This document shows positions 34,118-45,384 of a stretch of DNA of 64,000 nucleotides, piece by piece. The translations under genes and the position numbers were made by a program. Within the stretch, counting starts at the first letter, position 1. Each line of letters begins with the position of its first letter. Location: the NCBI GenBank assembly GCA_963669175.1, contig OY769902.1, positions 2,496,001 through 2,560,000 on the forward strand. Reading direction: 5' to 3'. The notes beneath the pieces are model-generated. The model was not told where the DNA came from and ran no database searches. It was given only the letters and a program-made list of their open reading frames with translations. This DNA comes from a bacterium (lineage in GTDB: Bacteria; Electryoneota; Electryoneia; Electryoneales; Electryoneaceae).

Positions 34118-35559
34118 CACACCTGCAACGAAAGATGAAACGCATTCACTTTGTCGGTATCGGCGGTATCGGCATGAGCGGTATTGCTGAGTCGCTGGCT
34201 GCGCAGGGATTTGAGATTACCGGCAGCGATCTGAGCGAATCCGCGATTACCGAACACCTGGTGGAGTGCGGTTGCACGGTGTACAAGGGGCACAAGGCGG
34301 AAAACGTGCAGGATGTGAACGCTTTGGTCTACAGCAGCGCTGTGGATCGTGAGAATCCTGAAATCGTGGAAGCCCGCCGTTTGGGTATCCCGGTGATCCG
34401 TCGTGCGGAGATGCTGGCAGAATTAATGAGACTGAAATCCGGAATCGCGGTTGCCGGAACACATGGCAAGACCACAACCACTTCCATGATCGGTCACATT
34501 CTGACCGAAGCGGGACTTGATCCTACGGTTATCGTGGGCGGTGTTGTACGTGGGCTGGGCACCAACGCCCGTCTGGGTAACAGTGAATTGCTGGTGGCCG
34601 AAGCGGACGAGTATGACCGCAGTTTCCTGAAGCTGACCCCGGTGCTGGCGGTGTTGACCACGCTGGAGGCAGAGCATCTGGATACCTACGGCACCTATGA
34701 AGCCTTGCGCGAGGCGTTCCTCACGTATGCCAACTCGGTTCCGTTCTATGGACTGGTTGCGGTTTGCACCGACGAGCCGAACCTGGTTGATCTTCTGCCG
34801 GAACTGGATCGCCCGGTAATCACTTATGGCACCAATCCTCATGCCGATCTGCGTATCAGTGATCTTGAATCAGGTGTAATGAGCAAATGCACAATCTGGC
34901 GCGGCGCGGAAAAGCTGGGAATACTGGAACTGCCGCTTCCCGGCTTGCACAACCTGAGAAATGCTTTGGGCGCTTTATCCGTCGCGCTTGAATTGGATGT
35001 GCCGTTTGATTCTGCCGTTGCAGCCCTACGGGGATTCAGTGGAGTGAAGCGTCGGTTTGAGCTGCGTGGTGAGGAACTGGGTGTGGCGGTTTATGATGAT
35101 TACGCCCATCACCCGACAGAGGTGAAGGCGACATTGACCGCTGCACGAGAAGCGTTTAACGGTCGCCGTATCGTGGGAATTTTTCAGCCGCACCTGTATT
35201 CACGAACCCAGACTTTTTACAAGGAATTTGCACAGGCGCTGCTACTGGCAGACCTGTTGATGGTGTCTGATGTCTACCCGGCACGGGAAAAGCCGATTGA
35301 AGGGGTGACCGGGCGGATGATTGTAGAGCAGGCGCAGAAATTCGGGCATCGCAATGTTCATTACCTGCGCCGTCGTGAAGAGATCGTTCATAAACTGTCG
35401 CCCATGCTGGAAGAAGGCGACCTGGTGATTACCCTTGGCGCAGGTGACATCTACAAGACCAGCGATGAAGTGCTGGAAGCGCTTCGCAAGCGGGAAGAGG
35501 AAAAGAATCGTGGTCCAAACCGACCTTATGGTGTCTATCGCCCGGACAGCCAGGGGTAA
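34114..35559 (+). CDS. murC: UDP-MurNAc:L-Ala ligase
   Basis: IHFVGIGGIGMSG, GTHGKTTT, EADEYD, DDYAHHP, FQPH. Start probably TTG 34114 (or ATG 34135), not 33799. Confidence 0.95.
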   Translation: MTHLQRKMKRIHFVGIGGIGMSGIAESLAAQGFEITGSDLSESAITEHLVECGCTVYKGHKAENVQDVNALVYSSAVDRENPEIVEARRLGIPVIRRAEMLAELMRLKSGIAVAGTHGKTTTTSMIGHILTEAGLDPTVIVGGVVRGLGTNARLGNSELLVAEADEYDRSFLKLTPVLAVLTTLEAEHLDTYGTYEALREAFLTYANSVPFYGLVAVCTDEPNLVDLLPELDRPVITYGTNPHADLRISDLESGVMSKCTIWRGAEKLGILELPLPGLHNLRNALGALSVALELDVPFDSAVAALRGFSGVKRRFELRGEELGVAVYDDYAHHPTEVKATLTAAREAFNGRRIVGIFQPHLYSRTQTFYKEFAQALLLADLLMVSDVYPAREKPIEGVTGRMIVEQAQKFGHRNVHYLRRREEIVHKLSPMLEEGDLVITLGAGDIYKTSDEVLEALRKREEEKNRGPNRPYGVYRPDSQG

Positions 35560-36427
35560 GGTGCGGACGGACGTCCCCCTTGCGCCCTATACGTCCTACA
35601 AAATCGGCGGCCCGGCTGCGGTGCTGTTCGAACCGGAAACGGAAGAATCCGTGGGGCAACTGCTGCATGATGCTGCCGAAGCGGAAGTTCCGGTACTGGT
35701 GATCGGTGGCGGCTGCAACATGCTGATCGCTGATTCGGGATGGCATGGGATTGCGCTTCACATGGGCGAAGGTTTGGCGTCATTGGACTTTGATCAGGAT
35801 CACGTCTCAGTTCAGGCCGGGGCAAAACTGATGAACCTGGTGCGTGAATCGGTGCGTCACGGCTTCAGCGGAATGGAATTGATGGCTGGCATCCCGGGTA
35901 CGGTTGGCGGCGCGCTAAGGATGAATGCCGGCGCTTTCGGGCAGGAAATTGAAGCGACTGTGACAACAGTACGTGGTTTCGGTCTGTGGGGTAAGCCCTT
36001 TGAATTGAAACGGAAGCGGATCGCGTTCGGTTATCGAACGGCTCCGGAACTGGACGACAAGGTTATTACATCGGCAGAATTCAGCTACACACAGGAAAAT
36101 CCTGAATTCCTGGTAAACCGGATGAATGAAGTGTTAAAGGTCCGCAATCAAAAGCAGCCATTGGAGCATCCGTCCTGCGGCAGCGTTTTCAAGCGTCCCC
36201 CAGGCTATTTCGCCGGGTCGTTGATTGAGGAATCGGGATTGAAGGGCAAGCGGGTCGGTGGCGCAGTAGTCAGCGAGAAACACGCGGGATTCATTCTGAA
36301 TGATCGTAACGCCACGGCCGCAGATGTTCGTGAACTGATTTGGATTGTTGAAGAGACGGTAAACAAGAAGTTCGGAGTCAGGCTGGAGCGTGAAGTCAAG
36401 TTAATCGGATTTGATGATGCGATTTGA
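35510..36427 (+). CDS. murB: UDP-N-acetylenolpyruvoylglucosamine reductase
   Basis: IGGPA, GIPGTVGGALRMNAGA, GSVFKRP, SEKHA, LEREV; start approximate. Confidence 0.94.
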   Translation: MVQTDLMVSIARTARGKVRTDVPLAPYTSYKIGGPAAVLFEPETEESVGQLLHDAAEAEVPVLVIGGGCNMLIADSGWHGIALHMGEGLASLDFDQDHVSVQAGAKLMNLVRESVRHGFSGMELMAGIPGTVGGALRMNAGAFGQEIEATVTTVRGFGLWGKPFELKRKRIAFGYRTAPELDDKVITSAEFSYTQENPEFLVNRMNEVLKVRNQKQPLEHPSCGSVFKRPPGYFAGSLIEESGLKGKRVGGAVVSEKHAGFILNDRNATAADVRELIWIVEETVNKKFGVRLEREVKLIGFDDAI

Positions 36428-37541
36428 ACCGACGAAAAGCAGTCGCAAGCGGCGTCAGAAGGTGTCTGCACGTCCTTCCTCGCGGAGGGTGTACAGCTCT
36501 ATCGCCTCGTCGCAACCGCGTACTGGTCGGAAAAAGCGTAAAATCGGACGCAAACTGCTTGGCTTGATAGTGATTGGTGTAATCGGATGGCAGGGATACG
36601 CCAACAAGGACACAATCCTTGGCTGGTTCGACCGTCCGGAAAAACCAAACGTAGCCACTACAGAACAGGCAGCGCCGATTGACAGTATCGGGGTGAGTAA
36701 GCGGTTGGCGGAGACGATACGGCAGCATCGTGAGATCATGCTGGAAACACTGGAGTTGCCGGACACCACGGTTCTTTACAAGGCCAATACGGATACGGCA
36801 GCAGATGCGCCAACGCTGGTAAGCGTGTTAAATGATTCCGCTGATCTGACATTCTGGCAGCGGATCAATCCGACACGACTGATGAACAACCTGTTTTCCG
36901 TGCAGGATGTTCGCATTTCCGGCGTGTTGAGCATATCGCAGGATACGATTCAAACGCTGATTGGCGATGTGACTGATCAGGGCATGTTCGATCTGGACCT
37001 GGAAGCGCTTGCGGAACGGGTGAACCAGCATTCACGGGTACAACATACTGTTATTCGCCGACGCTTGCCCAGCACGTTGATGGTGGATGTACAGGAACGG
37101 CGTGAGATCATGCTGGTGGTAAGCAGTGGGAAACTGCTTGGCGTAGATCGTGAAGGTGTCGTACTTGGCGAACCGAATCCGGGCTGGCCGCTGGATGCGC
37201 CGGTTGTGACCGGGTATCACGGCAAACTGAATCCCGGTGAGATGGTAGAAGATCCCGGTTTGCTGTCAGCGTTGACCTGGGCGCGTCATGCGTCCAACCG
37301 TCCGCTGGTCGGCGACTGGATCAGTGAGATGCACCTTGATAACGGTATCGTAGACTTTGTGCAGGGTGCAGGCAATGTGCAGGTGCAGCCCGGCGATCAC
37401 GCGATCGTAGCACAGGTGGCGGCATTGCACGCTTTTCTCGCCGGATTAGGCGAGTCGAAAAACGAAAACAATATTGTTGATATGAGATTCCCCGGTTTCA
37501 TCATCCTGAAACATGATGAAGCGGACCGGCGGAAAGGGTAA
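36414..37541 (+). CDS. ftsQ: Cell division protein FtsQ/DivIB-like (extended)
   Basis: Basic N-tail, TM, POTRA (FSVQDVRISG...RRLPSTLMVDVQER), C-terminal VDMRF; lies directly before ftsA. Confidence 0.82.
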   Translation: MMRFEPTKSSRKRRQKVSARPSSRRVYSSIASSQPRTGRKKRKIGRKLLGLIVIGVIGWQGYANKDTILGWFDRPEKPNVATTEQAAPIDSIGVSKRLAETIRQHREIMLETLELPDTTVLYKANTDTAADAPTLVSVLNDSADLTFWQRINPTRLMNNLFSVQDVRISGVLSISQDTIQTLIGDVTDQGMFDLDLEALAERVNQHSRVQHTVIRRRLPSTLMVDVQERREIMLVVSSGKLLGVDREGVVLGEPNPGWPLDAPVVTGYHGKLNPGEMVEDPGLLSALTWARHASNRPLVGDWISEMHLDNGIVDFVQGAGNVQVQPGDHAIVAQVAALHAFLAGLGESKNENNIVDMRFPGFIILKHDEADRRKG

Positions 37542-37562: not shown

Positions 37563-38816
37563 ATGGCTACAGGAAGCAACATGATTGTCGGCCTGGACCT
37601 GGGAACAACAAAGATTTCGACGATCATCGCGGAAATTGGCGAGTCCGGCACGCCGAACGTGGTAGGTGTCGGTTATTGCAAAGCCCAGGGCATGAAGCGC
37701 GGCGTGGTGATCAACATTGATAAGACGATCGAGGCCATCGAGAAATCGATTGCCGAAGCGGAACGTATGGCCGGTGTCCATGTGAGTTCGGTCTACACCG
37801 GAATCGCGGGCGACCATATCCGTTCGATCAACAGCAAGGGCGTGATTGCGATCAGCCGCGCCGGGGCGCGTGAACGCACCGGCATCATCACCCATGAGGA
37901 TGTGGACCGGGTGATCGAAGCGGCCAAGGCGGTCAACCTTCCGATGGATCAGGAAGTGCTTCATGTGCTGCCGCAGACGTTCACGGTTGATGATCAGACC
38001 AATATCCCCGAACCGGTAGGTATGGCCGGGGTGAGGCTGGAAGCGGATGTACACATCATCACCGGAGCGGTTGCCAGTGCGCAGAACATCTTCCGCTGTG
38101 TGAAACAGGCGGGGATTTCCATTCAGGATCTCGTACTGGAACCACTGGCGTCTTCGTATTCCGTGCTGACACCTGATGAAAAGGAATTGGGTGTCTGCCT
38201 GATCGATATCGGTGGAGGTACATCGGATATCGCCGTGTTCCAGGAAAGCGCTATCCGGCATACCTCGGTCATCGGGCTTGGTGGTGAGAATGTGACCAAA
38301 GACCTGGGTGTGGGATTACGAACCCCGATTTCCCAGGCGGAACGGATCAAGGTGGAATACGGGCACTGTTACCTGCCGTATGTGGATACGGAAGAGCAGG
38401 TCGAGATTCCCGGCATCGGCGGACGTGCGCCGCAAGTCGTGCCGCGAACCCTGGTCGCTGAAATTATCCAGCCACGAATGGAAGAGATTTTCGAGCTTTC
38501 CGCTGCACAGATCCGTAAAGCGGGTGTCTGGGACAAAATGACCTGCGGTATTGTGCTTACCGGTGGCGGTTGTCAGCTCGAAGGCACGGTGGAACTGGCG
38601 GAACAGATTTTCGAATTGCCGGTCAAGATCGGTTACCCGACAGGTTTGGGCGGCCTGATGCAATCGGCGAACAATCCTACGCACGCAACCGGAGTCGGAC
38701 TGGTGTTGTTTGGCCTCGATCAGGAGGGTACTACTGATCCGCTCCGTGGAGACGATACGACGATTTTCAAGAAGATAGGCAGGAGGATGAAAGAATGGTT
38801 CGAAGACTTTTTCTAG
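37563..38816 (+). CDS. ftsA: Cell division protein FtsA
   Basis: GLDLGTTKI, IDIGGGTSD, AERIKVEYG, VLTGGG, C-terminal amphipathic MKEWFEDFF. Confidence 0.97.
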   Translation: MATGSNMIVGLDLGTTKISTIIAEIGESGTPNVVGVGYCKAQGMKRGVVINIDKTIEAIEKSIAEAERMAGVHVSSVYTGIAGDHIRSINSKGVIAISRAGARERTGIITHEDVDRVIEAAKAVNLPMDQEVLHVLPQTFTVDDQTNIPEPVGMAGVRLEADVHIITGAVASAQNIFRCVKQAGISIQDLVLEPLASSYSVLTPDEKELGVCLIDIGGGTSDIAVFQESAIRHTSVIGLGGENVTKDLGVGLRTPISQAERIKVEYGHCYLPYVDTEEQVEIPGIGGRAPQVVPRTLVAEIIQPRMEEIFELSAAQIRKAGVWDKMTCGIVLTGGGCQLEGTVELAEQIFELPVKIGYPTGLGGLMQSANNPTHATGVGLVLFGLDQEGTTDPLRGDDTTIFKKIGRRMKEWFEDFF

Positions 38817-38896
38817 AGGTGAGAAACAAAGCGAGGCGGTCCACGGGGCCGGACGATTCACATAATGCTTCACCCCAGCAGGAGGGAGGCCAGGAG

Positions 38897-40981
38897 ATGG
38901 CAGACCAGTTTGAAAGACGTCAGGAAGACCAGCGCCCATTGAGCGTTCGGGACATCATGCAATCCGACCCCGCACTTGAAGACTCCTTTGACGGGGTGGA
39001 CGAAGGCACTCACGCCGCCGGTACCGAAGGGCACCTGCTTCAGCAGAAGATGCAGGCTGCAGCCGCCGCCAACCGTGCGTGGCTCGATGACAGCCCCTTC
39101 GACTTGAGCAAGCCGGAACCGCGCGCGCAGGTGGAGGAGAATGATTTTACCAGCGAAACTGAAGACTTCGGAGAGGTCGAGGAAGTCGAAGAGGAACAGG
39201 ATTTCGTGGGTGAGTTCGAAGAAGAAGAAACCACCGACGAAATCGAAGAACTTTCCTTTGACGAAGGCGACCTGTTCGAGTCTGAAGAAGACATGGACAA
39301 GGAATACCCGGTCGACGAGGATGACATCGACCTGGATATCACCTTGAGCGTGGGCGAAACGGAAGAAGAGGAAGAGGAAGTCCTCGACGCCGGTGAACTG
39401 GACACGGAAGACGATCTGGAAGCCTCACAGGAATTTGCGGACAGCCTGGAAGGCGATTTCACCGAAGCCGTAGAAGAAGCCGAACTGGAAGAAGAAGAGC
39501 TGGTCGAAGACGAGTTGGTTGAAGAAGAGGCCAGCGTTGCCGAGATCATGGAAAACGACGAAACGATTGAAGAAGAGCCGATGCCGGTTGATGAGATCAC
39601 TTCCCATGTGGAAGACGCGATGATGGGCCGTGTGGTGTCTCAGGACAGTTACATGACCGAAGAAGAGGAGAAAGAAGCGGTGGGCAATACTCTGCGTTTC
39701 GGATTCCAGGAGCAATCCGAGTACCGTGCACGGATGAAGGTGATCGGCGTGGGCGGCGCCGGGTCAAACGCCGTGGACAACATGATCTCCAGTAACCTGC
39801 TCGGGGTTGAATTCATCTGTCTGAACACCGACAGCCAGGCATTGGATGCCAGCCAGGCCTCCCGCAAAATGCAGATCGGCAAGGAAGTCACCCGTGGCCT
39901 GGGAGCCGGTGGCGATCCATGCGTAGGGCAGGCGGCTGCGGAAGAAGATGTGGAAATGATCAAGAAGATGCTGGAAGATACCGACATGGTCTTCGTCGCG
40001 GCGGGTATGGGCGGCGGCACCGGTACCGGCGCAGCCCCGATCGTAGCCGGACTGGCTCGTGAACGTGGTATCCTCACTGTCGGCATCGTAACCAAACCAT
40101 TCAGCTTCGAAGGCTCCAAGCGCACCAAGCGAGCCGTCGAAGGTATCAAGGCGATGAAGGACAATGTTGATACGCTGATCGTGATCCCGAACGACCGTCT
40201 GCTCCAGATCATCGATGAGAACGTGACCTTCAAGGCCGCGTTCCGTAAGGCGGACGAGGTCCTGTTCCAGGGCACCAAGGGCATCAGCGATATCATCAAC
40301 ACCCGTGGTCATGTCAACCTCGACTTCGCCGATGCCAAATCAGTCATGGCGAACAGTGGTGACGCCATCATGGGCATGGGAGTCGCGGAAGGCGAGAATC
40401 GTGCGGTCCTGGCGGCGGAAGCGGCCATCACCAGCCCATTGCTGGATAACCTGAGCATTGAAGGCGCGCAGGGCATCATTATCAATATTACCGGCAATGA
40501 GAAGCTGGGGATGCTGGAAGTCCAGAAGGCGGTTGACCTGGTGACACAGCGTGCCGGCGACAATGCGGACGTCTTCTTCGGTATCGTCAACGACGAAGGT
40601 ATGGGTGACAAGGTCAGCGTAACCGTAATCGCCACCGGTTTCGCCCGTAAGGATACCATCCGGACCAAGCGTGTCGATACAGAAGCGTCCGAGGGCTTTG
40701 GCCGTAGCCGCACCGAAACCACCTCCATCCATGACCGTTTCAACTTCGGGAACGGCAATGGTAACGGGAACGGAAATGGCAATGGCAACGGTAACGGAAA
40801 TGGTCACGGAAATGGCAACGGCCACAGCGAAAAGCCGACCAAGTTCCTCCGTGTCGAAGCGGACGAAGAAGATGTCGTTTTGGATGAAGTGGTCGATATC
40901 GATGTGGAAAACATGGATAAAGATGACCATGATCTGCCCGCTTTCCTGCGCCGGAATAAGAAGAACAACTGGAGAAGGTAG
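38897..40981 (+). CDS. ftsZ: Cell division protein FtsZ with long acidic N-terminal extension
   Basis: VIGVGGAGSNA, GGGTGTG, NLDFAD, C-terminal DLPAFLRR. ATG 38897 follows AGGAG; possible second start GTG 39680. Confidence 0.93.
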   Translation: MADQFERRQEDQRPLSVRDIMQSDPALEDSFDGVDEGTHAAGTEGHLLQQKMQAAAAANRAWLDDSPFDLSKPEPRAQVEENDFTSETEDFGEVEEVEEEQDFVGEFEEEETTDEIEELSFDEGDLFESEEDMDKEYPVDEDDIDLDITLSVGETEEEEEEVLDAGELDTEDDLEASQEFADSLEGDFTEAVEEAELEEEELVEDELVEEEASVAEIMENDETIEEEPMPVDEITSHVEDAMMGRVVSQDSYMTEEEEKEAVGNTLRFGFQEQSEYRARMKVIGVGGAGSNAVDNMISSNLLGVEFICLNTDSQALDASQASRKMQIGKEVTRGLGAGGDPCVGQAAAEEDVEMIKKMLEDTDMVFVAAGMGGGTGTGAAPIVAGLARERGILTVGIVTKPFSFEGSKRTKRAVEGIKAMKDNVDTLIVIPNDRLLQIIDENVTFKAAFRKADEVLFQGTKGISDIINTRGHVNLDFADAKSVMANSGDAIMGMGVAEGENRAVLAAEAAITSPLLDNLSIEGAQGIIINITGNEKLGMLEVQKAVDLVTQRAGDNADVFFGIVNDEGMGDKVSVTVIATGFARKDTIRTKRVDTEASEGFGRSRTETTSIHDRFNFGNGNGNGNGNGNGNGNGNGHGNGNGHSEKPTKFLRVEADEEDVVLDEVVDIDVENMDKDDHDLPAFLRRNKKNNWRR

Positions 40982-41082
40982 AATGGTAGTGGATCGTTTC
41001 ATTCGAACCGGTGAATAGATCCACTGAAGGATCGGCATGCGTGCCAGTTCCTGATTTTTCCTTCCTGCTGCTGGAAAAAGTC

Positions 41083-41114
41083 GGCACCCCATCTGAAAAG
41101 GTGGGGTGTTTTTT
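41083..41114 (+). terminator. Intrinsic terminator of the dcw operon
   Basis: GCACCCCATCT-GAAA-AGGTGGGGTGT followed by TTTTT. Confidence 0.85.
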
Positions 41115-41220
41115 AGTATTTCTTCTATCACTTCTACCTACATCTGTCATCCCCGACTTGATCCTGTCTCTTGGACTTGATCGGGGATCTCGAGGTGGGA
41201 GCGAGAATGCTGACTTCGAA

Positions 41221-41459
41221 CTGCTTTGTCTCATGCAAAGACGCGAAGGCAGAAAAACATGTCTCACGCAAAGACGCAAAGGCGCAAAGGAAAAGACGCA
41301 AAGGAAAAGAAAAGAAGGGAAAGGAGGGAAAGAAGGGAAAGAAGGGAAAGAAGGGAAAGAAGGGAAAGAAGTGAAAAGAATGAAAAACCTATTGGCCCCG
41401 CCGGCTTGAAGAACGCCGTAGCTTGCGGAGGCGGCTGCCCGGCGGTGGTCTATTTTAAA
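41221..41459. repeat. Composite repeat copy 1: CGCAAAG tract, purine microsatellite, ~65-nt structured core
   Basis: Near-identical to 45626-45844; core also at 50141-50200. Confidence 0.85.
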
Positions 41460-41658
41460 TGAAGCTAGTAGTCCACTTGTATTGAGGACTTGAAACGACT
41501 CGTCTCAAGCAAAGACGCAAAGGAAGAGACGCAAAGAACGCAAAGGAAGAAAAACATGTTTCACGTAGAGCCGCAAAGAACGCAAAGGAAAAGAAATGAA
41601 GACAATGTTCTTTTCCCGGACCGGAGGCGGTCCGGGAGACATTGCCATAATCCCTACC

Positions 41659-44600
41659 TTACTTCACCAGGATCGCCTTGTAGGATTCATTGATATTCGT
41701 ATCGGTCCTGATCGTAATGAAGTACACACCAGAAGATAAATCAGCCGCTGAATAATCAACATTCAGCCTGCCAACTTCCCGCACCATATTTTTTATCGTA
41801 TCAATTTTTTGCCCCAAGCTATTGTATACTTCTATGGTAACAGTTGACAATTTCGGTAAATCATATTGGATTTTTATGCTGCTGTTAAAAGGATTAGGAT
41901 ATAACGAACAATTATACACAAGGGGTAAATTGTGGTTATTGTCTGAAATGCCATCATCATAAGAATTTAAATAATGTATACTGCTACTTCTATAAGAATC
42001 TATCATGTCAGAGATGTAATCAAGGTTAATAAATTCTTCTTCAATATAATAAAACCAATCAATTTTTGTAACATAATTTTCTATTGTATCACTCACTCGA
42101 TTGTAAATTAAATTAGACATCATTATGCTCATATCTGAGTCAAGATTGAGTTCAGTGACATCATATGGTGGATAAATAAGATTGCCATCAATATAATAGC
42201 GCACTTTGTTGTTTTGATAGGATATGCCAAAATAATGATAATCATTGTCTAGAATGGAAATAGATGTATCGATATGTGAAAAATGATCTCCACTGGTTTC
42301 AATGAAGAGTATATTGTCTTCGATCTCGTTAAAACCATTGCTGTAAAACTCATAGTTTAATATAGAGCGTTGAAAGGTAACAGTATTATCATAATAAGCA
42401 AAAAGGTTTTGTGTGAATTCATCAGTATAATCATCGTTGGATTGGAAAGATGCTTTAAAGACATAAGTGCCACGACAGAAAGGACTTTCTAGTGTTCTTA
42501 TCATTGAATTGTAGGTGTCGTTATCATTAGTGCCGCTTGTAGACTTCAGATTGAGTACTCTATCTTCATTCTCTTCGGTTATATAAACATTGCTTTCTGA
42601 ATACAAATACCCACCTGCACCTGGATTATCGCTGGTGTTACAAACATGCCACCCGTGATCGGCTAGTTCTGAATAGGGATTGTCAATGTTGCAGTAGAAA
42701 TTATCATAAAATATGTTGGCCTCGTCGGGAGAATCATAGCAGAAAACATTGAAAAATTCTGTTGCGGATTCATCGAACGAATTAGCTGCTGTTGCAGTGA
42801 TGAGGTAGTTACCCTTTGCATTAAAGGTATGGGTGAAAGATGATTCAACAGAATCTTCACCACTAAAATCAGCGGTATCTTGTACTGCATTATCAATCGC
42901 CCAGGCGATCTCTTCGATGCCAAAGGGCGAAGACGCAGCAATATCGAATGTGATCTCAGTCCCTTCACTTACATTGACATACTTGTCCTGATTGTCCAAA
43001 CTGATGGAAAAGCAATCATAATCAATAACAGTAACTTCCCAGGATACAACGCTGTCCAGGCCTTCTTCATCATAGACAACCGTATGGACATCAAAAGTCC
43101 CTTCTGACTCGAACGTATACGACCAGACGTCCCTACTCCGCGCCCCTGCCGCCTCATGCTGGTCCATGAGTTCATCCTCAAGGTACCATTCGAAAGACAC
43201 GAGATTACTGTCCGAATCACTTGCGCCTACAGTAAAGGACAGGGATCTACCCATACCTGACGTTGTAGAAGAGGCTTCCGGTTCAACACGCCAGATTACA
43301 GGATTCGAGTTCTGGACCGTGATTTCCCAGGCAATCATCTCCGAACATTCATAACTGTCATAGACAATCGCGTGGACATCAAATGTTCCTTCTGACTCAA
43401 ATGTATACGACCAGGAGTCTACATCATCATCGCTCGTAACATTATGAGTTGCCATTACTTGATCACCTAGATACCATTGTATGAAATCCAGATTACCATC
43501 AACATCGCTGACGCCTGCGGTAAAAGTTGCAGAACAACCATAGCCTGAAGATGAGGCAAACTCTTCCGGCGCAATTCTCCAAATCTCAGGAGAGGTATTC
43601 TGGACATTGATTTCCCAGGTAAGTGAAACCTGTTCTTCCAAAGTGTCAAAGACATAAGCGTGGATGAAGTAAGTCCCTTCAAACATGAATGAAAGGGCCC
43701 ACGTATCTTCGTCTTCATCTCCAGTCGCGTTATGCGTACGCATCAGTTGGTCATTCAGGTACCATCTGAAGCAGTCGAGATTGCCCTCCAGATCACTGGC
43801 GCTGACGGTAAAAGTGAGTTCCTGCCCAGGAAACAGGTTGATGGATTCATCTTCAGGATTCACACGACAGATCTCGGGAGGAGTGTTTTGGACGTGGATT
43901 TCCCAGGAAATTGAAACCTGTTCTTCTAAAGTATCATAGATATAGGCGTGAATAGTGTAGGTTCCCTCAGTTTCAAACGTGTGCGACCAGGAATCTTCGT
44001 CTTCTGCACCTGCTGTCTCATGAGTGACCACAAGCTGATCATCCACGTACCATTCGAAGTTCTCAAGATTCCCGTCATCATCGCTTGCGCCAACCGTAAA
44101 GGTACACTCCTGGCCGGGTAACAAGTCCACATTGCCTTGTTCAGGATCAATCCGCCAAATCTCGGGCGCAACATTCTGGACAGTAACTTGCCAGGACGTC
44201 ATTAACTGATTATCCAAACCGTCATAAACATAGGCGTAGACAGTGTATGTGCCTTCATTCTCAAATGTTTGTGACCAGGAGTCTTCATCTTCATCGCCTG
44301 CGGCATCATGATTGGCCACCAATTCATCATCCAGGTACCATTCAAAGTGGTCAAGGGTACCTGTTTCAACACTTGCACCGGTAGTAAAAGAACACACCTG
44401 ACCGGGGATCAGTTGAACATTCCTTGATTCAGGATTTTCACGCCAGATTCTGAAGGGACGCTGTTCGACATTGATCTCCCAACAGGTTATTGCAACAGTA
44501 CTACCTTCAGAGTAAACATGAGTATAGACGTGTGTAACCTCTTCAGTATCAAATGTATGCGACCAGGTATCTTCAGCTTCATTCCCAGTTGCATCATGCC

Positions 44601-45384
44601 TGGCCATAGGAGTATAAAACAGATACCAGTCGAAGTAACAAAGCTCATGTTCATCAACGCTGGCAAGGGCAGTAAAACTGATCTCCTCACCGGGATTAAC
44701 ATCTACAGATGCTTCTACTGGATAGTCTCGAAGAACTACAGGGGAGTCGTCCTGGACGATGATCTCCCATCCATCGGTTTGACTCATACCCAAAGAATCA
44801 TAAGCATAAACATCAAGTTCATAGGTGCCCTCAGTATCAAAGGTTAAGGTCAGGGTATCATTCAAGGAGTATCGGTGCGTGAAGTCAGGAAGAGATGTAT
44901 GAATTAACTGCTCGTCCAGGTACCATTCGACGCGATCAATATTTCCGTCACCATCAACAGTCACTATTTCAAACATCATGGGTTGATCAGGTGCAAGGCT
45001 GAAAGTAGGCTCCATGGGCATTCCAACCATACAGTGAGGTGTGCCATTATGAATAACACTGACCCACCAGCTGGTTGAATCAGACTCGCCATTATCGTTG
45101 TATGCCATGCAGCATATTATTGGGATAGCAGTTTCGGTGAATGTGTGCGTCCAGCTATCCTGGTCATTGTTGCCACTAAGATCGTGATCCGCCTGTAAAT
45201 CACCATCAATATACCATTCGCAGTGGTCTAATCCGATCGCGTCACTTATGTTGACAGTAAAAGTGATTGGAACATTTTCGTAAAATAATGGATTTCCACT
45301 TAATGGATAAACCTTTGTAACCTCGGTACTGTAGACGGTAGAAGTAACGAAGAAAAGAAAAAGCAGGGTGAATAATTTACGCAT
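41659..45384 (-). CDS. Secreted protein: about nine tandem ~95-aa Ig/PKD-like repeats, GH16-like domain, C-terminal sorting domain
   Basis: Repeat FTVGASD.DGNL..FEWYLDD...SWS.TFE.EGTY.V.AYVYD...WEI.VQN; jelly-roll-like domain from NIFYDNF; YPNPFNS CTD. Confidence 0.8.
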   Translation of the reverse strand: MRKLFTLLFLFFVTSTVYSTEVTKVYPLSGNPLFYENVPITFTVNISDAIGLDHCEWYIDGDLQADHDLSGNNDQDSWTHTFTETAIPIICCMAYNDNGESDSTSWWVSVIHNGTPHCMVGMPMEPTFSLAPDQPMMFEIVTVDGDGNIDRVEWYLDEQLIHTSLPDFTHRYSLNDTLTLTFDTEGTYELDVYAYDSLGMSQTDGWEIIVQDDSPVVLRDYPVEASVDVNPGEEISFTALASVDEHELCYFDWYLFYTPMARHDATGNEAEDTWSHTFDTEEVTHVYTHVYSEGSTVAITCWEINVEQRPFRIWRENPESRNVQLIPGQVCSFTTGASVETGTLDHFEWYLDDELVANHDAAGDEDEDSWSQTFENEGTYTVYAYVYDGLDNQLMTSWQVTVQNVAPEIWRIDPEQGNVDLLPGQECTFTVGASDDDGNLENFEWYVDDQLVVTHETAGAEDEDSWSHTFETEGTYTIHAYIYDTLEEQVSISWEIHVQNTPPEICRVNPEDESINLFPGQELTFTVSASDLEGNLDCFRWYLNDQLMRTHNATGDEDEDTWALSFMFEGTYFIHAYVFDTLEEQVSLTWEINVQNTSPEIWRIAPEEFASSSGYGCSATFTAGVSDVDGNLDFIQWYLGDQVMATHNVTSDDDVDSWSYTFESEGTFDVHAIVYDSYECSEMIAWEITVQNSNPVIWRVEPEASSTTSGMGRSLSFTVGASDSDSNLVSFEWYLEDELMDQHEAAGARSRDVWSYTFESEGTFDVHTVVYDEEGLDSVVSWEVTVIDYDCFSISLDNQDKYVNVSEGTEITFDIAASSPFGIEEIAWAIDNAVQDTADFSGEDSVESSFTHTFNAKGNYLITATAANSFDESATEFFNVFCYDSPDEANIFYDNFYCNIDNPYSELADHGWHVCNTSDNPGAGGYLYSESNVYITEENEDRVLNLKSTSGTNDNDTYNSMIRTLESPFCRGTYVFKASFQSNDDYTDEFTQNLFAYYDNTVTFQRSILNYEFYSNGFNEIEDNILFIETSGDHFSHIDTSISILDNDYHYFGISYQNNKVRYYIDGNLIYPPYDVTELNLDSDMSIMMSNLIYNRVSDTIENYVTKIDWFYYIEEEFINLDYISDMIDSYRSSSIHYLNSYDDGISDNNHNLPLVYNCSLYPNPFNSSIKIQYDLPKLSTVTIEVYNSLGQKIDTIKNMVREVGRLNVDYSAADLSSGVYFITIRTDTNINESYKAILVK

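Follow-up and report, generated by a model that had tools for sequence, protein, structure and literature searches.

A long, acidic N-terminal extension of FtsZ that overlaps ftsA in an Electryoneota bacterium and its relatives

The ftsZ gene considered here lies on contig OY769902.1 (assembly GCA_963669175.1) of a bacterium of the family Electryoneaceae, in a stretch of 64,000 nucleotides that was analysed whole and is called the window below. It is the last gene of a division and cell wall (dcw) cluster on the + strand, downstream of ftsQ and ftsA, and this ftsA-adjacent copy is the sole ftsZ seen within the window. An intact FtsZ is preceded in frame by 286 codons, rich in Asp and Glu, that begin inside the 3' end of ftsA, and a comparable arrangement recurs in a clade of relatives. 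The features on which the argument depends are given below in window coordinates, with residues counted from ATG 38795 unless the 694-residue form, which starts at ATG 38897, is named.

37563-38816, + strand: ftsA (Pfam FtsA, 3.8e-48; SHS2_FTSA, 1.8e-29), with the C-terminal peptide GRRMKEWFEDFF
38781-38786, + strand: AGGAGG, a Shine-Dalgarno-like site inside ftsA made of two Arg codons (AGG AGG), 8 nucleotides before ATG 38795
38795, + strand: ATG, with a Shine-Dalgarno duplex of -10.3 kcal/mol and unusually unstructured surroundings (local fold -7.2 against a mean of -14.7)
38795-40981, + strand: full ftsZ open frame, 728 codons plus stop (stop codon 40979-40981)
38795-39652, + strand: N-terminal extension of 286 residues, rich in Asp and Glu, joined to an intact FtsZ
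38880-38899, + strand: AGGAGGGAGG, with ATG 38897, the start given in an earlier note on this DNA; Shine-Dalgarno duplex of -11.4 kcal/mol; alternative start of the long form
38942-38959, + strand: SVRDIM, residues 50-55, a candidate short linear motif of the pattern [ST][VM]x[DE][IT]x, a lead only
39131-39600, + strand: hyper-acidic tract in the translation, residues 113-269 approximately
39473-39529, + strand: 3.8 tandem copies of a 15-nucleotide unit (GAAGAAGAAGAGCTG) that keeps the codon phase, within the acidic tract
39642-39655, + strand: AGGA, 7 nucleotides, then ATG 39653, which encodes a clade-conserved internal Met (MTEEEEKEAVGNTLRFGF); candidate start of a 442-residue short form
39665-39682, + strand: GAGGAG (39665-39670) followed by GTG 39680, the internal start of the earlier note; Shine-Dalgarno duplex of -9.1 kcal/mol; candidate start of a 433-residue form
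39692-39706, + strand: LRFGF pre-core peptide, with L300 nearly invariant in the alignment
39734-40216, + strand: Tubulin/FtsZ GTPase domain (Pfam PF00091, 1.2e-50), residues 280-440 of the 694-residue form
40358-40642, + strand: FtsZ C-terminal domain (Pfam PF12327, 4.9e-26), residues 488-582 of the 694-residue form
40747-40822, + strand: Asn-Gly repeat, 6-nucleotide unit, 12.7 copies, in the disordered C-terminal linker
40931-40954, + strand: conserved C-terminal peptide DLPAFLRR, then a basic tail NKKNNWRR; P715 and R719 invariant

Judged by its sequence, the gene is a genuine ftsZ, and every sequence-level test for FtsZ came out positive. The PF00091 and PF12327 matches both lie above their curated cut-offs, with no Pfam family in residues 1-279 of the 694-residue form. 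The nucleotide-binding signature GGGTG(S/T)G is present as GGGTGTG (GMGGGTGTGAAP), with G404, G406, G407, G408, T409 and G412 invariant in an 18-sequence alignment, and the N-x-D-x-x-D loop is present as VNLDFAD, with N508, D510 and D513 invariant; we take this loop to be the T7 loop of FtsZ, which completes the GTPase site of the next subunit. Every clade member has an NG-rich linker (N673 invariant, G674 nearly so), as does the outgroup P0018, and DLPAFLRR aligns with all relatives and is predicted to bind FtsA or another anchor. Like the canonical FtsZ of Staphylococcus and Bacillus (4dxd, 3vo8, 2vam), the protein has both domains, GGGTGTG, NLDFAD, a disordered linker and DLPAFLRR, and its E-values to solved FtsZ chains are about 1e-107. 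Those chains align only to residues 270-620 of the 694-residue form and to nothing earlier, which leaves the extension outside every solved structure.

The extension is very probably translated. The earlier note had described an unbroken frame from ATG 38897 to the stop at 40979-40981, encoding 694 residues and holding the acidic strings EEVEEEQD and EEAELEEEELVEDELVEEE; the frame is indeed open, and both strings are in its translation, although the open frame continues for 34 codons further upstream, to ATG 38795, so that the extension probably begins further upstream than the note had placed it. Over the 286 codons of 38795-39652 there are 0 in-frame stops; the other + frames have 7 and 16 and the - frames 4-6, and shuffling the same stretch left it free of stops in 1 of 20,000 mononucleotide and 0 of 5,000 dinucleotide shuffles. 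Three-base periodicity is strong, with G at 0.545 in codon position 1 and A at 0.458 in position 2. When a codon log-odds score is trained on the window's 29 other open reading frames (ORFs), the extension and the FtsZ core both reach +0.49 per codon in frame, and the other two frames of the extension give -0.47 and -1.01. The GAA:GAG ratio (0.71:0.29) is identical to that of the 29 reference ORFs and the score for synonymous choice is 0.12 against a gene mean of 0.13. Because the open frame, the periodicity, the codon score, the GAA:GAG ratio and the synonymous choices all match those of genes, the extension behaves as ordinary coding sequence of this genome. Two antisense ORFs, one Ser-rich at 39040-39600 (186 residues) and one at 38316-38939, were set aside because they mirror the Glu-rich frame and ftsA.

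In composition, the 286 residues are 36% Asp and Glu and only 6% Lys and Arg, with a net charge of -86 and an isoelectric point (pI) of 4.05. An acidic proteome of the halophile kind found no support as the reason for this: the 29 ORFs range from pI 4.1 to 10.1 with a median of about 5.4, and the short form of FtsZ, at 4.9, is less acidic than the extension. All 15 clade sequences have an extension of net negative charge (-2 to -86), the window being the extreme. It is predicted to be disordered: in an AlphaFold2 model of the 728-residue form, run with the 18-sequence alignment, the predicted local distance difference test score (pLDDT) falls below 50 over residues 17-53, 55-80, 94-225, 230-235 and 238-308, against 85-97 in the core. 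The weak helices in that model lie at residues 2-16, 35-42, 51-56 and 79-97, the last at a pLDDT of about 60; helix 2-16 reaches 56-66, the relatives have Pro or Gly after residue 8-9, and conservation at the extreme N-terminus is limited to the 7 residues that the overlap with ftsA forces. Pfam searches of the window extension, of the extension of the relative P0013 and of the corresponding ORF (orfX) of a relative locus, L076, found 0 families at E up to 1, and a protein atlas feature search with residues 1-286 gave no usable look-alike. A search for stand-alone homologues of 66-210 residues to the first 120 residues, which reached as far as shared 5-residue words, gave 1 word-sharing candidate and none that scored.

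The same architecture is found in the nearest relatives. A word-indexed search of 5.8 billion proteins, with 8000 candidates scored and the best 120 listed, placed 14 homologues (P0002-P0015) on top, at 462-582 bits and 47-65% identity, the remaining proteins among these best 120 of 8000 reaching at most 396 bits. Thirteen of the 14 are 506-753 residues long and begin with MVR or MVQ and a hydrophobic stretch of the FL type, which is what translation yields from an ATG embedded in the conserved C-terminal codons of FtsA (...EWF-DFF stop), and in all 13 the frame is open from that ATG inside the 3' end of ftsA through to the core. P0003 (441 residues, an NCBI annotation) starts instead at the internal Met of the near-identical P0002. 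A survey of N-terminal lengths in relatives, which the earlier note had proposed, thus turned up long extensions across the clade, of 70-309 residues, and because all 13 start at the ftsA-embedded ATG despite these differences in length, the phase and openness of the frame must have survived many insertions and deletions. When 1.84 billion cluster representatives were searched exhaustively with HMMER, six clade representatives likewise came out at 462-555 bits and the next at 373 bits. The top score in that search (611 bits) went to P0122, a protein of 840 residues with two complete FtsZ units in tandem and a Pro-rich linker, which ranks highest only because it matches twice.

In a FastTree phylogeny of core regions built from 16 clade sequences (the window, the 14 closest proteins and L076) and 28 outgroups hand-picked from about 250 non-clade hits, the clade is monophyletic with a support of 0.997, and the other N-extended FtsZs (P0142, P0174, P0183/P0247 and P0197) are placed elsewhere; the extension would therefore have arisen once, at the base of the clade, and the sequences indicate that it has persisted as core identity fell to about 50%. 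An open, disordered, net-acidic region that is retained clade-wide is explained neither by an error that fused two ORFs nor by an unconserved upstream frame, the two circumstances that the earlier note had named as fatal to its reading. That note had also taken short N-termini to be the bacterial norm, and for the most part they are: in 142 non-clade representatives the core motif has its median position at 19.5, against 318 here (from ATG 38795). The rule has exceptions, however, since 5 of these 142, P0142 among them, have the motif at position 120 or beyond, and PMC6175996 gives the FtsZ N-terminal peptide a span of 'from a few to ca. 200 amino acids' between taxa. Long N-terminal regions of FtsZ are thus rare and not unique.

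Some of these distant N-extended proteins have features of their own. P0142 and P0197, of unrelated lineages and with extensions of 65-100 residues, carry a pre-core peptide of the FEF/FKF type twice, once at the extreme N-terminus and once beside the core, with an acidic spacer between the copies (100 residues in P0142). P0183 and P0247, of another lineage, have Ala/Pro-rich extensions of more than 200 residues with a common N-terminal motif, LFDYL-AAR, that resembles the SVADIIAAC / SVRDIM motif of the present clade.

Where translation of the long form begins can be judged from the ribosome-binding sites. A core Shine-Dalgarno 4-mer occurs at -16 to -8 in 10 of 29 longest-ORF starts, against 6.3% of random positions, and the organism thus uses Shine-Dalgarno sites; duplex energies were computed with an anti-Shine-Dalgarno sequence assumed to be canonical because the window has no 16S gene. 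By this measure ATG 38897, the start preferred in the earlier note, is strong and stays a good alternative, and both it and ATG 38795 fall within the range of the other dcw genes (-8.8 to -13.5 kcal/mol). We nevertheless think that the long form probably starts at ATG 38795, because its AGGAGG is built from Arg codons that are rare in this genome (AGG is 7% of 822 Arg codons in the 29 reference ORFs), because the 13 long relatives are open as far as this ATG, because the residues just past the ftsA stop are alike between distant members (BLAST E 0.001-0.009 over the first 20-40 residues), and because orfX of L076 is open as well. The acidic extension results from either start.

Inside the frame, a second start may exist. 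The earlier note had pointed to GTG 39680 as an internal start for an FtsZ of normal length, and this codon is in frame (783 nucleotides, or 261 codons, after 38897), follows GAGGAG and reads VGNTLRFGFQE. An internal start is plausible, only the site that the clade conserves is a different one: the Val at GTG 39680 is not conserved, whereas all 15 extended clade sequences have a Met in alignment columns 404-406, encoded here by ATG 39653 and placed 9-14 residues ahead of LRFGF. This Met is followed by Ala, Ser, Gly, Thr or Pro in 13 of the 15 and by Lys in 2, and a small second residue is typical of real N-termini. In the window itself GTG 39680 has the better Shine-Dalgarno duplex (-9.1 against -4.0 kcal/mol), and the N-terminus that it would give (M-GNTLRFGF) is like those of non-extended outgroups (MNLRFNF, MSLTFDF); P0017, P0018 and P0028, for instance, start one or two residues before the LRFGF-equivalent peptide. 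Its GAGGAG is also plain Glu codons, and by our estimate, made from the 5% quantile of -8.0, one strong site among the 26 in-frame NTG codons of a Glu-rich stretch is not surprising. In this genome either ATG 39653 or GTG 39680 could serve. That a short isoform is made clade-wide, so that ftsZ yields long and short forms together, is plausible on these sequence grounds, at a little less than an even chance.

At the DNA level, the comparison covers one relative. A clade-marking core motif, GGAGxNAV[DE]NMI, is present in 15 of 15 clade proteins and in 0 of 106 others (121 proteins in all), and a DNA scan for it gave at least 119 loci (L001-L119), among whose listed matches L076 is the sole clade member. 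Many FtsZs of Alphaproteobacteria share the motif, among them those of Hyphomonadaceae and Rhodobacteraceae. L076 belongs to Candidatus Electryonea clarkiae, of the phylum Ca. Electryoneota in the Fibrobacterota-Chlorobiota-Bacteroidota (FCB) group, and its FtsA and FtsZ are 73% and 57% identical to those of the window. Together with the type-IX secretion sorting domain encoded by a gene next to the cluster, these identities suggest that the window probably derives from this phylum or one near to it. Its ftsA ends with the layout of the window, namely GGGAGG, 8 nucleotides, and an ATG inside the Glu-Trp codons. From this ATG runs orfX, 106 codons that are free of stops where the other two frames have 6 and 9 over the same span, and which looks translated by that token. 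Its terminal TGA shares bases with the start codon of a 595-residue ftsZ (ATGA), with AGGAGG 8 nucleotides upstream of the junction (split region 2506-2826, - strand), and this ftsZ still has a 130-residue extension rich in Lys and Glu. In the whole interval between ftsA and ftsZ at L076, only three in-frame starts have a strong Shine-Dalgarno site: the ftsA-overlapping ATG, the ATGA start and the internal Met, the last with AAGGAG 8 nucleotides upstream (-8.7 kcal/mol). The frame change may mean either that the fused long form is not universal, a real coupled pair of genes being possible, or that the assembly has a one-base insertion or deletion.

The extension evolves faster than the core, and unevenly. 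Between P0013 and P0014 the first half is 94% identical (152 residues) and the acidic half 61%, against 99% in the core and 92% in the C-terminal linker, all gaps being in frame; for P0006 and P0007 the corresponding values are 66%, 69%, 91% and 81%, and for P0011 and P0013 the two halves stand at 50% and 35%. The in-phase 15-nucleotide tandem repeat in the acidic tract suggests growth of the extension by slippage. Two short motifs, both defined post hoc from the alignment and without a null model, recur across the clade: 9 of the 15 extensions have [ST][VM]x[DE][IT]x between residues 24 and 68, with a second match at residue 247 in the window, and 7 of the 15 have an LRF-like copy of the pre-core peptide.

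Sequence added N-terminal of the FtsZ core is known elsewhere. In Mycoplasma and Odinarchaeota it reportedly takes the form of amphipathic helices. For Atribacter, PMC7736352 describes N-terminal extensions of 10-73 residues genome-wide, one of them on a second FtsZ without an adjacent ftsA, predicted to be amphipathic and proposed to bind membrane. The present extension resembles all of these in its position; it differs from that of Atribacter in that its ftsZ adjoins ftsA and keeps the putative FtsA-binding C-terminal peptide and in that the extension is polyanionic. Another parallel is the cyanobacterial N-terminal peptide of PMC6175996, likewise a lineage-specific addition to FtsZ that annotation often cuts (20 of 97 genomes); its removal raised lateral association, and its deletion in Anabaena abolished the two-hybrid signal with SepF. 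By that description the cyanobacterial peptide is about 60 residues and highly conserved, whereas the present extension is 286 residues, hyper-acidic and poorly conserved, overlaps ftsA and has a conserved internal Met. In E. coli, residues 1-10 of FtsZ are a cis disassembly element at the longitudinal interface (PMC12137876); that region too is disordered and directly N-terminal of the core, and LRFGF is its positional equivalent here. It is 10 residues long against about 300, and in the present long form the peptide is internal, not terminal. Variable N-terminal regions of FtsZ are thus already published, and what differs here is size, charge, coupling to ftsA and the internal start: in open-access PubMed Central and bioRxiv we found no FtsZ N-terminal extension of this size or charge, with coupling to ftsA or with a conserved internal start, and no bacterial FtsZ isoforms made by internal initiation.

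Tubulin, in its acidic C-terminal tails, and FtsZ, in its C-terminal linker, offer familiar examples of charged, disordered tails that tune spacing and lateral contacts. The extension sits at the opposite end of the protein and, by the anchor swap reported in PMC5979038, on the opposite filament face, and no homology is implied. In that report, once the membrane anchor is placed at the N-terminus instead of the C-terminus, filaments attach by their other side, and both curvature and chirality are inverted.

From these elements we propose the following model. In this lineage, ftsZ would have acquired once a translated, disordered and net-acidic extension that evolves fast in sequence and length. 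The long form would initiate at ATG 38795 by way of the AGGAGG of rare Arg codons, and because this ATG sits inside the last 22 nucleotides of ftsA, its synthesis would be coupled to translation of FtsA. A second initiation at ATG 39653 (or GTG 39680 here) would give a canonical FtsZ of 442 or 433 residues, and the two forms would co-assemble, with tailed subunits a minority among the bulk FtsZ. By the anchor swap of PMC5979038, the N- and C-termini of FtsZ would exit from opposite filament faces, the C-terminus being tethered to the membrane through FtsA; the extension would therefore point into the cytoplasm, away from the membrane. There, a polyanionic, space-filling tail may keep filaments apart, with less lateral bundling, and repel neighbouring filaments and DNA, while its place beside LRFGF at the longitudinal interface may bias the polymer toward disassembly. 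We expect that cations would screen the repulsion of the tail. This spacer and brake mechanism is drawn by analogy, and we put it forward tentatively. The explanation as a whole, when weight is given to the coding frame and the clade-wide architecture, is the best that we can offer, and we lean toward it. The wider version, in which the Z ring of a phylum-level clade is built on two ftsZ isoforms, a tailed long form coupled to FtsA and a bulk form from the internal site, whose ratio would set spacing, turnover and perhaps nucleoid exclusion, is possible but doubtful.

Several observations weigh against this explanation and its parts. The functional steps are analogy throughout. The protein models of the relatives come from automatic gene callers that favour long ORFs, and NCBI chose the short start for P0003. 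The conservation of ATG 38795 is uninformative and carries no weight, because the Glu-Trp codons of FtsA force it, and the Shine-Dalgarno duplex of ATG 39653 (-4.0 kcal/mol) is merely average (mean over all codon positions -3.6). In L076 the extension is split over two frames, orfX and ftsZ, and with a net charge of -2 comes close to neutral; the clade therefore does not show strong acidity throughout. The fast divergence of the acidic half, at 61% identity where cores are at 99%, equally fits weak constraint or GAA/GAG slippage. A scan for sigma-70-like promoters over 38400-41700 found 0 sites on the + strand, extension included; its 1 site in total was on the - strand, against 1.4 expected, with a consensus that may not fit this phylum.

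Two rivals deny one of the two forms. If FtsZ were made only from ATG 39653 or GTG 39680, the upstream 858 nucleotides would be an untranslated or incidentally translated leader, which would suit the NCBI annotation of P0003 from the internal Met, the strong Shine-Dalgarno site of that Met in L076 and its status as the sole conserved residue of the region, the strong site and outgroup-like N-terminus of GTG 39680 in the window, and the absence of a detectable family or fold in the extension. A leader would not be expected, however, to stay stop-free and in phase with an ftsA-embedded ATG in 13 of 14 relatives over 70-309 codons, to show periodicity and a codon score equal to that of the core, or to be 94% identical as protein over 152 residues between P0013 and P0014, and we regard this rival as very unlikely. 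The opposite proposal, that only the long form is made, turns the internal Met into a relic of the ancestral start and the extension into an enlarged assembly brake acting in cis at the longitudinal interface, not a lateral brush. It draws on the weak site of the internal ATG in the window (-4.0) and on the direct junction between the extension and the LRFGF-equivalent peptide, and is less easily dismissed, though still unlikely: a relic would hardly persist in 15 of 15 sequences amid an unconserved region, a small second residue in 13 of 15 and a strong site in L076 would be unexpected for it, and a tail of 286 residues at every longitudinal interface might block polymerisation.

A third rival keeps the translated extension and changes its role, to that of a docking arm: short linear motifs in the first half would bring in putative division partners, with the acidic tract serving only as a flexible linker. 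The better conservation of the first half than of the acidic half (94% against 61% for P0013/P0014, 50% against 35% for P0011/P0013), the motif [ST][VM]x[DE][IT]x in 9 and the LRF-like motif in 7 of 15 extensions, the short AlphaFold2 helices at 35-42, 51-56 and 79-97, and the need for the Anabaena N-terminal peptide in the SepF two-hybrid signal (PMC6175996) would all fit. Set against the fact that the motifs are post hoc and absent from the shortest extensions (P0009, P0010 and P0012), and that [ST][VM]x[DE][IT]x is also absent from P0002 and P0005, this makes for a distinctly improbable alternative. Two further proposals have next to no chance of being right. A sequencing or assembly error could have fused an upstream ORF to ftsZ in the window, as the two frames of the equivalent L076 region might hint, but a single frame is also what 13 independent database sequences of several origins show, and the first 120 residues have no stand-alone homologue of 66-210 residues in the search by 5-residue words. 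A -1 ribosomal slippage before the ftsA stop, producing an FtsA-FtsZ fusion, would explain why the frame is open up to ftsA; relative to ftsA, ftsZ does lie in the -1 frame, and a run of T precedes the ftsA stop at both loci (TTT TTC in the window, T7 in L076). The ftsA frame nevertheless lacks a canonical X XXY YYZ heptamer, no stimulatory structure was noticed, although none was searched for, and an ATG with a strong, well-spaced Shine-Dalgarno site is the simpler account of these observations.

Studies of disorder in FtsZ have mostly concerned the C-terminal linker. That a few N-terminal residues control disassembly has been shown only recently (PMC12137876). The present clade offers a natural experiment in this respect, with an N-terminal disordered region 7 to 30 times the E. 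coli length, net acidic, and kept since the origin of the clade, which a second start codon may render switchable. For annotation this means that one and the same gene stands in databases in two versions, trimmed by homology-guided pipelines, as in P0003, or retained in full by ab initio callers.

The remaining features of the cluster and its surroundings are these.

35435-36427, + strand: murB-like ORF, at the start of the dcw stretch described here
36411-37541, + strand: ftsQ (ORF; Pfam POTRA_1), which precedes ftsA
41083-41110, + strand: terminator-like hairpin of 12 pairs followed by a T run, about 100 nucleotides past the ftsZ stop

The final 22 nucleotides of ftsA overlap the long ftsZ frame, and the operon is closed by the hairpin and T run at 41083-41110; Rfam returned 0 matches over the whole window. 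FtsQ, from a putative TTG start (that of the longest ORF), has about 45 residues rich in Arg and Lys ahead of its membrane helix (36411-36590), so that a strongly basic cytoplasmic FtsQ tail and a strongly acidic FtsZ tail are encoded in the same cluster. In the gap of about 680 nucleotides between the ftsZ terminator and the next gene lie purine-rich tandem repeats at 41266-41386 (AAAGAAGGG, 7.3 copies with 94% matches, and 8-18-nucleotide variants), which had no Rfam match. The - strand at 41659-45384 encodes a very acidic protein of 1241 residues that combines repeated Ig/PKD-like domains with a C-terminal sorting domain for type-IX secretion and has near-identical internal repeats.

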